Of a DNA stretch of 64,000 nucleotides, positions 40,299 through 45,504 are shown in pieces. Below the pieces are notes generated by a model. It saw only the letters and a list, made by a program, of their open reading frames with translations. It was not told the origin of the DNA and did no database searches. Each line of letters starts with the position of its first letter. Position 1 is the stretch's first letter. Location of the stretch: NCBI GenBank assembly GCA_037131105.1, contig JBAXRQ010000001.1, positions 130,039-194,038 on the forward strand, given 5' to 3'. Made by a program: the position numbers and the translations under genes. The stretch is from a bacterium (lineage in GTDB: Bacteria; Patescibacteriota; UBA1384; CAILIB01).

Positions 40299-40381
40299 AG
40301 TACGTACCACCCCAAGCTGCGCCTTGAGACGTGCTCCGGAGGAGTACATAAAAGTTCTCCGAGTTGAACAGCGTTGATTGG
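40299..40381. repeat. Direct repeat, about 83 nt, containing an RNA-type hairpin (gtgctcc-gga-ggagtac). Left copy.
   Basis: About 88% identical to 45201..45284. The core is gccttgagacgt[g/a]ctccggaggagtacataaaa…ttgaacagcgttgattgg. Confidence 0.8.
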
Positions 40382-40476
40382 GGCGGCACATGCTTGCGTC
40401 TCACACGGGTTTCTGGTTAAATAGTTCCATCCTTAGCCATGCCGGATAGGTATGGAATAGGAAAGGGGAATTTTCA

Positions 40477-40902
40477 ATGGCGAAAAGTGCAGCAGGAAAT
40501 GGCAGTCAAAAAGCACCAGTTCTGTTTGTCTCAGCAGCACCCGGGGACTTGGGTGGAGCCCGTGAAGTCTTGGCGGAAGGTACTTGGCTGAAGCATGTGA
40601 CGCTCAGTCAAGCAACTCTACTTCTGGGAGATGCAGTCCGGAATCAGGCCTCTCCCAGGGCTGTCGTGTTTGATCGGCGGCTTACCAACTCTCGACTGCG
40701 TTCTGCCGATTGCGGTACCCATTATGTTGTAAGGTGCATGGAGCTTGCCGTTCTCTGCGGCGCTCCTATTGCGACCATCGGGTCGCCAGGATCCCATGAC
40801 AGCATTATCGGCGAGTTTCTCCGACCGATCGGTGAAGATCGCATCAATGCCTCGACCGTGATCTGGCCGGAAGTTGCCGCACATCTGGAATTGGCCTCCT
40901 GA
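40477..40902 (+). CDS. Hypothetical 141-aa protein.
   Basis: A strong AAAGGGGA ribosome-binding site lies 7 nt upstream. It is the only plus-strand gene in the repeat-flanked segment. No motif recognised. Confidence 0.35.
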   Translation: MAKSAAGNGSQKAPVLFVSAAPGDLGGAREVLAEGTWLKHVTLSQATLLLGDAVRNQASPRAVVFDRRLTNSRLRSADCGTHYVVRCMELAVLCGAPIATIGSPGSHDSIIGEFLRPIGEDRINASTVIWPEVAAHLELAS

Positions 40903-40995
40903 CCAGGGCTTTTCCTACCAACCATTTAGTAGTCTGCAGTGGCCTTGGATCTGACTCAGATCCAAGGCCCTGTTTTTTTATCGGCACAGGTTATT

Positions 40996-41778
40996 TTATT
41001 TTGTCGCTGTATCCAGAACTAAGCCCGGGCTGATTGCGACGTGGTTTGGCGCTGCATTTCCTTTAACCGGATACCATGCCTGATTTCCCTGCGAGTCGCG
41101 GGCAGTAATGAAATAATCCAAGGTGGTCACACCGTGCAGTCCGGTGCTAGGTATATTCGCCAGATAGGTATTGGGATGCTTGGAGTCCGTTCCGTCACTT
41201 AGCTCAGCTGCCTGCCACGCGCCTGTAGGAGTGGTGCGGTAGTAGAAAGAGAGGATGGGAAAGGTAGAAGTCGCCACGTTATCAGTAGCGGTGAAAGAAA
41301 GCTTTATGGGCTCCACGGTATAGGTGCTGCCAAATCCGACAGTGATGGTCGGCGGCGTTTTGTCGGCAAGCTCTGGGTCTGACACCACCTTGTCGCCCTT
41401 GATCCAGTCAGTCAGTAAAAGATTCTGACCGGCTTGGATAGTGTGATAGCGTAGCTCACCGTCCTCATAGTAAACGTAGCCGTCATTTCCGAGAAAGCCG
41501 AGCTGGGCCGAATAGGGCTGGCGTATGTCATGAATAGTGAAAAGTCCGGAACTATCCGTCAGATACTGCGAGGTTGACCCTGGGGCAATGACGGTAAGGG
41601 TGCCAGTAAGGGGGTTGCCCTTGGTGTCAGTCACTTGCCCCATCATCTTGGTAGGGGGCAGCGTAATGACATCTATCGCCCTAGACCTGTTGTGGAGGTA
41701 GACCCCGAGTCCTCCTAAAAGGATGCCGACCAGTGCAGCCCCGACGATAAGGTTTGATCGTTTGAAAAGTCTGCTCAT
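40996..41778 (-). CDS. Membrane-anchored surface protein with a CarboxypepD_reg/Cna-B-like beta-sandwich domain.
   Basis: N-terminal TM helix, then …GQVTDTKGNPLTGTLTVIAPGSTSQYLTDSSGLFTI…. It overlaps the upstream giant gene by 4 nt. Confidence 0.5.
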   Translation of the reverse strand: MSRLFKRSNLIVGAALVGILLGGLGVYLHNRSRAIDVITLPPTKMMGQVTDTKGNPLTGTLTVIAPGSTSQYLTDSSGLFTIHDIRQPYSAQLGFLGNDGYVYYEDGELRYHTIQAGQNLLLTDWIKGDKVVSDPELADKTPPTITVGFGSTYTVEPIKLSFTATDNVATSTFPILSFYYRTTPTGAWQAAELSDGTDSKHPNTYLANIPSTGLHGVTTLDYFITARDSQGNQAWYPVKGNAAPNHVAISPGLVLDTATK

Positions 41779-44700: not shown

Positions 44701-45137
44701 GGGGTGTTAGCCGCAAGAACCTGGGTTATCCGGCTGGTAAGGATACCTGTTGTGTCTGCGGCCCCTGCCTTCTTATAATAAATGGCCAGGTCGTTCTTGG
44801 AGTAGCCGGCGCCATTCCCCTGGTTTCCCTGGCCGGTCAGACTGAGGGTTATCGTTGTCCCGAGTTTGTAGGAGACTGCAGGTGAATTCTGGACCTTTGC
44901 CGGTAGGTTGATATTAAGGAATGAGCCTTGTACGGATGACCCGGAGTCAGCCTTCGCGACCAACGGGGTGAGGGCGGCTGAGAGGCTGCTTTTCCAGATT
45001 GACCGTAGCTGGGTGGGAATGGGTGCGGCTACGCTGAAAACAGCTCCCACAAAAAATGCTGCGAGAATGCCGGCGGTAAAGGAGTGGCGTGGATGTCTGC
45101 TCATACCTCTAGTGTAGCACAGCGGCAGGGAAAACAT
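41775..45137 (-). CDS. Giant secreted protein: signal peptide, multiple Cna-B/CarboxypepD_reg-like beta-sandwich repeats, and a C-terminal HExxH zinc-metallopeptidase-like domain.
   Basis: N-terminal hydrophobic signal. Repeated blocks such as ISGTISNTAGGSVTG…GVYTFSDLPDGITYTVTPSAVGYTF. The C-terminal region carries VRHESGHELEY (HExxH). Confidence 0.6.
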   Translation of the reverse strand: MFSLPLCYTRGMSRHPRHSFTAGILAAFFVGAVFSVAAPIPTQLRSIWKSSLSAALTPLVAKADSGSSVQGSFLNINLPAKVQNSPAVSYKLGTTITLSLTGQGNQGNGAGYSKNDLAIYYKKAGAADTTGILTSRITQVLAANTPAATLTSSLNTASVNGSALAAGEYQVWVCIVPVGGAATASSVCDKYVNIKLYSPHTISGTISNTAGGSVTGPLSGISVVLSGAPSSVTSPVTTNASGVYTFSDLPDGITYTVTPSAVGYTFGPLRYSNIAVIGANVTGLNFLGSLPAVPAPVADCSRATGGAFILFSDRNCQGTQLSVPVGTYLRYLPDQGFNDIASSLFVPGTTAVSIMVYENADRNLNQPRGKKCLSQSNGGTHWDLSTAGTSDQFDTGLNMNDQISSLETFANGTCTPNPVTYTISGHIQTSTGSAVAGVTLTYISDISQNPTPAATTDAAGNYTTIGLTPNHNYVLTPSKTGITFSPISSAITLVTTRNVTGINFTGTLPSTVHSISGHIANSDPTDTVTITGGVASVHPNAAGDYTIPNVRDGSYTLAVTTVTVVNVGQLTVSPASAAITLSGANLGGQNFTVQGYTISGRIASAAGIAAQNESVYVHNSSLFQTNTNGVYTTPRLPPAAYVVEPLLFSSTNYYNPRNIDATVSNANLINKNFTVIPGSLATGKVTDMSGNILLENQFGYITVDLTDQRTSEKITTTAYNGTFDSRLILNDSYAATVRTDFGEFTFGTYAITTASYVFPPFHIVVPQGKQTHIVVDGPAFALPLIPADVTAIKRLAGGQSPQTFHTVIENTSMFTFPAQFWLDPAAVWDIVVAPLHGEFQPTTITDIFGTSSGHAKTVINPGTNYYFLGIGIDMVCTREKAVGSVDLCFEGALAGALADDSANTPVWQGMADEMDLLRDSTRVDGSSNPSHRKLTEKILISSSIVNNAYYRAGGSQDYSYEITILSGLLNAALMQGGVTQEVSAGRNTVRHESGHELEYLVSSGWERPDLASYVSAWPSLYSRTRALSYANDIFTLEMDSTYSHDNGAGHPEENEEEDFATTIFADNQRPDRYCHDFVTKMNLLPASQADGKAILEEKRGVADRVFRRLTLAGLPANTCI

Positions 45138-45200
45138 AGGTGGAAAATCTCTTTATCGGAATCGGGCTGAGGCTCCCTTGAGTCGATCAGTAGGCTTGAA

Positions 45201-45284
45201 AAGTAGTTGCACCCCTAATCTACGCCTTGAGACGTACTCCGGAGGAGTACATAAAACTTCCCTGATTTGAACAGCGTTGATTGG
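45201..45284. repeat. Right copy of the roughly 83-nt direct repeat. It is followed by a roughly 220-nt cluster of related hairpins and inverted repeats.
   Basis: See 40299..40381. Downstream, 45332..45361 is ccttgagacatatccc-gaa-ggggtatgtcta, 45426..45452 is a second gccttgagacgtactccggaggagtac, and 45408..45432 against 45480..45504 form a 25-nt perfect inverted repeat. Confidence 0.8.
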
Positions 45285-45504
45285 AGCTGATACTGGTAGG
45301 CTGTTGCCTCTCCAATTCAGACCTTTTCAGACCTTGAGACATATCCCGAAGGGGTATGTCTATATAGTTTTCCATGAGTCGATCAGTCGCTTCTGCGACT
45401 GGTAAGCGTTGGCATTGCCAAAGCCTGCCTTGAGACGTACTCCGGAGGAGTACTGCTAGATAGGTTCCCTTGAGTCGATCAGCAGGCTTTGGCAATGCCA
45501 ACGC

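Follow-up and report, generated by a model that had tools for sequence, protein, structure and literature searches.

Proteobacteria and pneumococci are well known to harbour small structured repeats in their intergenic DNA. In Streptococcus pneumoniae, BOX elements are modular intergenic repeats of ~100 nucleotides (nt) that adopt a stable fold when transcribed and can alter the expression of neighbouring genes. Correia elements of Neisseria have their own conserved 26-bp terminal inverted repeats, and the ends of IS200/IS605 elements present subterminal hairpins that are recognized strand-specifically as single strands, without target duplication. Here we describe a repeat family from the genome of an uncultured bacterium, found in a 64,000-nt stretch of contig JBAXRQ010000001.1 (hereafter the window, positions 1–64000). 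Copies of a hairpin-bearing repeat unit lie there on both sides of a three-gene cassette, located between the L,D-transpeptidase gene ykuD and the gene trxB.

By analogy, the closest published picture is the array of neisserial intergenic mosaic elements (NIME) at pilC1, taken together with the minimal mobile element. In NIMEs, RS units are bounded by dRS3 and form intergenic arrays of ~50–150-nt units around a short palindrome (PMC3898611). Such arrays flank the surface-protein gene pilC1, which is present or absent depending on the strain, with the repeats at the point of insertion or deletion, while dRS3 itself measures 20 bp, has 6-bp terminal inverted repeats, occurs in ~700 copies per genome and is the target of a phage integrase (PMC3898611). 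In a minimal mobile element, conserved genes bracket differing cassettes that lack a mobility gene and are exchanged by homologous recombination (PMC3898611). Repetitive extragenic palindromic (REP) elements form the second point of reference. REP families are described with an unpaired conserved tag beside a short covarying stem with G·T pairs; their clusters are tandemly reiterated with flanking DNA and lie near the 3′ ends of open reading frames (ORFs) and between convergent ORFs; REP dimers inserted within long palindromes are documented, some families are clustered at few loci, and REP arrays can flank gene clusters (PMC3733652). Correia elements are likewise intergenic repeats with a stable structure when transcribed, which can alter neighbouring expression (PMC2649163).

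We consider it probable that the window carries a lineage-restricted mosaic repeat family of the kind represented by REPs, bacterial interspersed mosaic elements (BIMEs) and NIMEs, and that this family flanks a surface-protein cassette resembling a minimal mobile element. Alignment of all repeated pieces revealed that a single ~55-nt unit accounts for every copy. It consists, in this order, of a first conserved box (CCTTGAGAC), a 7-bp hairpin with a 3-nt loop, an A/T-rich linker of 10–14 nt that often contains TATAG, and a second box (CCTTGAGTCGAWCAG). A covariance model (R1), built from ten unit copies, matched only 40316–40379, 45219–45282, 45326–45394 and 45422–45490 in the 64 kb, at 68–74 bits. 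Pairwise, units are 71–93% alike. They are intergenic, typically at gene 3′ ends, and arranged singly or in head-to-tail arrays with a period of 96–107 nt. The segment and its repeat features are:

40290–45504, no strand: whole segment from the ykuD stop to the trxB stop, an insertion relative to relatives in which these convergent genes are neighbours
40299–40384, plus strand: left 86-nt repeat, a type-b unit with box 1 at 40322–40330, hairpin at 40331–40347, degenerate box 2 at ~40360–40372 and tail GCGTTGATTGG; 67.9 bits
45175–45190, plus strand: truncated unit (end of linker and box 2 only), adjoining the start of the 1120-aa gene
45202–45287, plus strand: right 86-nt repeat, a type-b unit with box 1 at 45225–45233 and hairpin at 45234–45250; 71.5 bits
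45332–45386, plus strand: unit with the compensated hairpin ATATCCC-GAA-GGGGTAT and box 2 at 45372–45386; 69.6 bits
45384–45401, plus strand: small hairpin CAGTCGC-TTCT-GCGACTG between units
45402–45508, no strand: perfect 27-bp palindrome, beginning at the stop codon of trxB, with arms at 45402–45428 and 45482–45508 and a 53-nt loop that is in essence one complete unit
45428–45482, plus strand: unit in the palindrome loop with box 1 at 45428–45436, hairpin at 45437–45453 and box 2 at 45468–45482; 74.4 bits

A first-pass annotation of this stretch had reported direct repeats flanking a ~4.9-kb segment. These are indeed present: 40299–40384 and 45202–45287 align without gaps over 86 nt at 84% identity, with a 62-nt core of 92% identity (40320–40381 versus 45223–45284). 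Both copies represent a subtype of the unit (type b), in which box 2 has drifted to CGAGTTGAACAGC and TGATTTGAACAGC and is followed by a GCGTTGATTGG tail. The hairpin core CCTTGAGACGT[G/A]CTCCGGAGGAGTAC was found at 40322, 45225 and 45428, with 0 matches in 100 shuffles. The third of these copies had been noticed before, as had a related hairpin, the variant AGACATATCCC-GAA-GGGGTATGTCT at 45337–45361, whose stem is extended to 11 bp. Shuffled sequences matched neither the 26-nt core CCTTGAGACGTRCTCCGGAGGAGTAC, which occurs three times, nor TTGAACAGCGTTGATTGG, which was found twice. A motif earlier described in three copies, CC[AT]TGAGTCGATCAG, was recovered at 45176, 45372 and 45468, exact in 3/3 cases; since its shuffle control permitted 2 mismatches, the significance of these exact copies is understated. 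What had been taken for a nested inverted-repeat cluster at the right end is instead three tandem units of one family, one of them in the loop of a terminator-like palindrome. The order in this right intergenic region is the truncated unit (45175–45190), the type-b unit (45225), the unit with the compensated hairpin (45332) and the unit at 45428, with all units of the cluster antisense to either flanking gene. The right cluster was identical base for base in an independent Logan assembly (run SRR7053528), and thus it is no one-off assembly artefact.

The unit hairpin is under selection, while no other part of the unit is visibly paired. Among 9 intact units from 4 genomes, standard pairs form at 63/63 pair positions, and RNAalifold predicts the hairpin as the only helix of the unit. 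The covariation that had been proposed as a check was found, with compensatory changes on both sides in 4/7 hairpin pairs of these 9 units and a covariation score reached by 0/500 shuffles. The loop sequence varies between units (GGA, GAA, CTA). The stem of the left copy (GTGCTCC/GGAGTAC) contains one G·T pair. This pair had been pointed out before and was then read as a sign of transcription; however, G·T wobbles are tolerated in hairpins of single-stranded DNA as well, and consequently they are no proof of transcription. G·T pairs are found in four intact units, one in each and always on the box-1 strand, while the mirror A·C is found in none. This 4:0 split is suggestive only.

Compared with REPs, the unit shares a stem-loop with compensatory changes and G·T pairs beside a conserved unpaired motif, the position at gene 3′ ends, the tandem reiteration of clusters, the occurrence in palindrome loops and arrays on the flanks of genes. 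In contrast to the GTAG and CGTC REP superfamilies, the conserved motif is CCTTGAGAC, and a second box follows 10–14 nt downstream. No GTAG adjoins any unit hairpin. Members of the CGTC superfamily carry an unpaired CGTC tag (or TGTC/CCTC) at an end of the palindrome. On the strand opposite box 1 the sequence is ...GGAGTA-CGTC-TCAAGG, with TGTC instead in the 45332 unit; the first C of this motif is able to pair, and its position there is 3′ of the stem. CGTC families have 8–9-bp stems with 4–5-nt loops and a 3-nt tail that fits CCA, whereas the unit has a 7-bp stem (11 bp in one unit) and a 3-nt loop, and the bases after its stem are ATA, TGC, GTC or AAG. Furthermore, units are mostly arranged head-to-tail and not as head-to-head dimers. 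Regarding the REP-associated tyrosine transposase (RAYT), no Y1_Tnp match was obtained among the 30 window proteins scanned, the window being 64 kb of the ~949-kb genome. Taken as a whole, anatomy, position, degenerate copies, patchy distribution, orientation independent of genes and absence of promoters led us to match the family to mosaic repeats of the REP/BIME type. It differs from BOX in having no sequence similarity to BOX modules.

The insertion was recognized by comparison with relatives. The lineage was defined by TrxB homologues, with contigs of 0.91–0.95 Mb, and the junction was compared with species-level relatives (TrxB 77–90%), not with strains. In five lineages (L004, L005-7, L008-9, L106 and L107; TrxB 77–81%) trxB and ykuD are convergent neighbours, with 0–166 nt between their stop codons and without units. 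The segment 40382–45200, for which a comparison with relatives had been suggested, is missing where the two genes adjoin. Because ykuD and trxB are adjacent in relatives, 40290–45504 is an insertion at a variable junction. Lineage L105 has a single gene of the histidine phosphatase family (His_Phos_1; 2211–2738) at this junction, which is an independent insertion at the same place. In the closest relative, L003 (TrxB 90%), two units follow directly after trxB, oriented as in the window, and then an unrelated gene; L104 (TrxB 82%) has a different trxB neighbour. On the short L003 and L104 contigs ykuD is not included. Thus the junction is empty in five species-level lineages, holds His_Phos_1 in L105 and three genes in the window, as is typical of a minimal mobile element. 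Like NIMEs and minimal mobile elements, the locus has intergenic unit arrays that flank a variable surface-protein cassette between two conserved genes. It differs from NIMEs in that there is no sequence similarity, the copy number appears low (in the 64 kb scanned) and the host is an uncultured bacterium with a genome of ~0.95 Mb. Neither a transposase nor an integrase was detected in the segment or in the 30 neighbouring proteins scanned, and no homologues of the cargo were found in the corresponding loci of the relatives. The composition of the segment is native (GC content 0.54 versus 0.55; average tetranucleotide distance), and a foreign origin of the cargo was rejected on this basis.

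The other side of trxB also varies. A pseudopilin-like cluster of 4–5 genes (N_methyl, PilX_N and GspH matches) lies between ruvA and trxB in L003–L009 and L105–L107, while ruvA and trxB are adjacent in the window (46459–46619) and in L104; the maf gene of the window is found between rpoD and ruvA. As the cluster is missing and the ykuD–trxB junction carries an insertion, both sides of trxB are rearranged in this genome.

The cargo between the repeats comprises the following features:

40477–40902, plus strand: 141-aa orphan ORF with a strong ribosome-binding site, GGAAAGGGGA, upstream
40941–40969, plus strand: intrinsic terminator with a 13-bp stem followed by T7, predicted to end the transcript of the 141-aa ORF
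40996–41778, minus strand: 260-aa protein with one N-terminal hydrophobic (membrane) helix and a weak CarboxypepD_reg-like domain
41775–45137, minus strand: 1120-aa protein (1109 aa in the NCBI record) with a signal or anchor sequence and an HESGH motif

This agrees with the first-pass description of a 141-aa ORF with a ribosome-binding site, an anchored 260-aa protein and a 1120-aa protein with an HExxH motif, here HESGH. The cargo is orphan or very rare and lineage-specific. Among 5.8 billion proteins, the 141-aa ORF matched only itself, and it belongs to no Pfam family. The 1120-aa protein contains 4 matched CarboxypepD_reg stretches, with overlapping matches to immunoglobulin-like families, and matches other proteins only via these repeated CarboxypepD_reg domains. 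No Pfam or PDB entry matches its C-terminal HESGH domain of ~400 aa (41778–42980, minus strand), for which 1.84 billion representative proteins include only 4 homologues. The stop of the 1120-aa gene and the start of the 260-aa gene share 4 nt. The best homologue of the HESGH domain (P0222, 43%) is encoded in L108 (10001–14235) and is likewise trailed by a smaller gene of the CarboxypepD_reg type, the start of which again overlaps the preceding stop, so that the two genes form a conserved module.

The first-pass annotation had made its proposal depend on the hairpin core being found elsewhere too, and with copies at other loci in L002, L003 and L108 the core is not confined to this stretch. 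On L002, a JGI metagenome contig, at least 4 units in both orientations lie within 430 nt upstream of a kinase-like gene. L002 has a unit that consists of box 2 only, is located 33 nt from a gene start and is the counterpart of 45175–45190 in the window. The latter, together with 2024–2089 of L003 and 294–362 of L002, represents degenerate or truncated copies, as expected for decaying repeats. A single unit, scoring 42 bits, was found in 22.9 kb of L108, where it has a PEGA-domain gene on one side and a sortase gene on the other. This unit is located 2.2 kb from the homologous cargo module and does not flank it, and the intergenic regions of the module itself are without a unit. Regarding dispersal, two loci are found in 64 kb, both beside the cassette, and over the four genomes the units occupy five genomic contexts. 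A degenerate core pattern gave 0 matches in 185,579 species-representative genomes, one contig in the JGI metagenomes (L002) and 0 matches in viral contigs, where a looser pattern gave 13 matches at 13–20 bits, equal to chance; no plasmid or phage match of the unit was obtained. TrxB resembles TrxB proteins of the candidate phyla radiation (CPR) and DPANN, and a TrxB-based genome scan returned only relatives of at most 53% identity, with no units in 1.2 Mb. Literature searches with the motif strings found no description, and none of our literature searches found such a structured intergenic repeat described for very small streamlined genomes of uncultured bacteria.

Long palindromes are associated with the units as well as with gene ends. 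The perfect inverted repeat at the right end, as previously annotated, exists; however, it is 27 nt long with arms at 45402–45428 and 45482–45508, instead of 25 nt at 45408–45432 and 45480–45504. It folds at −66.7 kcal/mol (z = −10), the inverted repeat was matched by 0/300 shuffles, and its right arm overlaps the trxB stop codon at 45505–45507. Significant inverted repeats enclose 5/8 intact units (27, 20, 10, ~12 and ~21 bp), all of different sequence, while 3/8 have none. The flanks of the left 86-nt repeat form an imperfect stem, the duplex of which was beaten by 5/300 shuffles. Palindromes of the same kind are also found without units: one of 26 bp (92%) at 46537–46624 overlaps the ruvA stop codon, and one of 26 bp in L104 (1608–1685) takes up all of the space that separates trxB from the convergent gene. 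Since these unit-free palindromes at gene ends are equally long, the palindromes are a host feature with units in their loops. The simplest reading is that long gene-end palindromes are a trait of the lineage and that units occupy their loops. This distinguishes the family from Correia elements: each of its copies has other inverted repeats, which seem to be part of the host site. The perfect 27-bp stem would be a plausible RNase III substrate, as is a Correia element when transcribed. The palindrome-enclosed unit of L002 (235–329) points the opposite way to all units around it, whereas in the window the enclosed unit is oriented like its neighbours. An inversion switch between the palindrome arms is compatible with this comparison of L002 and the window (n = 2), but was rejected, as a 53-nt segment is implausibly short. 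Besides, a perfect 32-bp palindrome at 59302–59369 includes the last ~17 nt of tRNA-Ser(gga).

How could repeats and cassette have come together? The ykuD–trxB junction is a variable site, which here holds a three-gene, strain-specific surface-protein cassette with units on both sides. The two 86-nt copies could be halves of an array that was split by the cassette, or a duplication that arose when the cassette recombined in at a unit. Their 62-nt patches of 92% identity may then serve as substrates for gain and loss of the cassette by homologous recombination. Read-through of the units would add stable hairpins to the 3′ ends of the ykuD and trxB mRNAs. The units themselves perhaps spread as hairpins of single-stranded DNA, handled by a transposase encoded elsewhere.

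Several points weigh against a REP-, BIME- or NIME-like family. Both window loci border the same cassette in the 64 kb of the ~949-kb genome that were scanned, and consequently the repeats could belong to the cassette. The unit carries neither the GTAG nor the CGTC 5′ tag of the described REP superfamilies, head-to-tail arrays are an arrangement that is rare for REPs, and no transposase of any kind was seen in the segment and the 30 neighbouring proteins. In addition, all single-transition departures in intact hairpins (4/4) are G·T on the same strand. Finally, a box 2 conserved 10–14 nt from the hairpin, combined with variable outer stems, is the pattern of a functional structured RNA too.

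The latter point leads to the first alternative, a dedicated structured RNA: the unit could act as a small RNA, bind a protein or be a self-cleaving ribozyme, for example. Two conserved single-stranded boxes would be presented by a closing stem that varies (P1) and the covarying hairpin (P2), and the arrays would be tandem RNA genes or cis-elements acting on the neighbouring surface-protein genes. This explanation keeps some weight, as its signature is likewise a conserved core with a covarying hairpin and outer stems that vary: the core is conserved across 4 genomes while the flanks differ, P2 covaries, and 5/8 units have enclosing stems of unrelated sequence. Furthermore, G·U pairs are on the box-1 strand in intact hairpins (4) and in the L002 outer stem (2), the GAC in box 1 could pair with the GUC in box 2 beside tandem G·A mismatches, and the first element of the array is a box-2-only unit in the window as well as in L002, 33–71 nt from a divergent gene start. 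Nevertheless, we hold a dedicated RNA to be unlikely. With Rfam 15, only two tRNAs of the window passed, both repeat regions reached at best 10–11 bits compared to thresholds of 45–100, and no match was obtained there even at E ≤ 10, so that the suggested Rfam check delivered no family. A scan of both strands of the repeat regions found no sigma-70-like promoter site, and thus the box-1 strand is without one. The cis-regulatory RNA structures considered in the first-pass annotation consequently gained no positive support. Units of the right cluster and of L003 are antisense to the only transcripts expected, while orientations in L002 are mixed. P1 is absent from 3/8 units, the outer stem of the left copy is better on the opposite strand, and unit-free palindromes of the same kind exist. 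Moreover, the loop is unconstrained in sequence, both 86-nt copies have a degenerate box 2, and in the minimum free energy (MFE) fold the 5′ arm of P2 pairs with box 2 instead, which is not kept in variant units.

Narrower readings were rejected as well. A promoter (TTGAGA-17 nt-CATAAA) is compatible with the two 86-nt copies only, where the −10 hexamer misses its final T, and is absent from the other units. A role of the units as intrinsic terminators fails, as a T-rich tail is found only at the 45337–45361 variant, and so does a CsrA-type decoy with a GGA loop, as the loop is also GAA or CTA. The alternative fold, in which the hairpin's 5′ arm pairs with box 2, is present in the MFE structure but not maintained in variant units.

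The second alternative regards the 86-nt copies as the functional ends of a mobile island, the 4.9-kb cargo of which was moved as a unit by an enzyme encoded elsewhere. The ends could be sites of the attL/attR type or the terminal hairpins of a non-autonomous IS200/IS605-like element that is mobilized as a single strand by a Y1/HUH enzyme. Direct repeats with same-strand hairpins at both borders of the insertion fit this view, and similar hairpins on the same strand at both segment ends are a likeness to IS200/IS605 elements. The G·T bias is strand-specific, as expected for a single-stranded DNA structure, a second repeat-bracketed insertion lies beside tRNA-Glu in the window, and in L108 a unit lies about 2.2 kb or less from the one good homologue of the cargo module. 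However, the segment and the scanned neighbouring genes encode no integrase or transposase, and in contrast to IS200/IS605 elements tnpA and tnpB are lacking, the homologous ends are longer (62–86 nt), and tandem arrays as well as units without cargo occur. The copies are only 84% identical, and the right border consists of three and a half units, not of one. The L108 unit does not flank the homologous module, the intergenic regions of which are unit-free, and in L002, L003 and L108 units occur without any such cargo. In our judgement a mobile island is thus improbable.

One might further speculate that the unit, with its variable closing stem, its covarying hairpin and its two conserved boxes left unpaired, is a functional single-stranded nucleic-acid module, either a new class of structured RNA or an undescribed recognition module for the mobilisation of single-stranded DNA. 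If the latter were true, its targets in ultra-small, CPR-like genomes would be the loops of terminator palindromes, and it would shuttle surface-protein cassettes. We regard such a module as quite improbable. Chance similarity or an assembly artefact, for which nothing speaks except that the source is a metagenome-assembled genome, has next to no probability given zero shuffle matches, the identical sequence in the independent Logan assembly and homologous units in three other samples.

Other kinds of element were considered and dismissed. The first-pass label of an island bounded by elements like REPs or miniature inverted-repeat transposable elements (MITEs) holds for the bounded insertion, and REP-like is its best part. 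MITE is a misfit, because conservation is confined to the interior and the inverted repeats around it are entirely different from copy to copy; nor was there any sign of a direct target duplication. A CRISPR array does not fit, with units 71–93% alike, 'spacers' that share motifs with other units and with L002, and no cas-like genes in the scanned neighbours. Against a diversity-generating retroelement, the mismatches between the 86-nt copies involve all bases and are non-coding, and the scanned genes include no reverse transcriptase. As for a DNA uptake sequence, CC[ACT]TGAG[AT]C occurs 8 times in the 64 kb, with 7/8 inside units. An origin, terminus or dif site was rejected, as GC skew is positive across the window without a switch.

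The feature is real, well defined and ordinary in kind: a new family within a familiar kind of intergenic repeat, and no new kind of system. A known phenomenon is extended to a new lineage, and current understanding is left unchanged. New is a defined repeat family with a working covariance model in a very small streamlined genome (~0.95 Mb). The ykuD–trxB junction, with none, one or three genes, offers a convenient setting in which to study the swapping of surface-protein genes, while units in stop-codon palindromes bear on terminator-like hairpins as landing sites for repeats.

Three minor observations from the window should be added. Direct repeats of ~145 nt (24168–24311 and 25051–25193; 89% identical) bracket a 133-aa ORF (24501–24902, minus strand) and adjoin tRNA-Glu(ctc) at 25177–25253, and both contain a copy of the tRNA 3′ end (GGTAGCGCCAGCGGGAGTCG) together with one and the same hairpin of 19 bp. 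The arrangement resembles an att-type duplication left by integration at a tRNA gene; no integrase is present at this repeat-bracketed segment (24168–25253). Positions 1–4000 show tetranucleotide distances of 0.19–0.24, compared to a mean of 0.145 (standard deviation 0.023). Finally, genes are usually co-oriented with the G-rich leading strand, whereas the window shows the opposite: GC skew is positive on the plus strand over 1–64000, yet most genes are on the minus strand.

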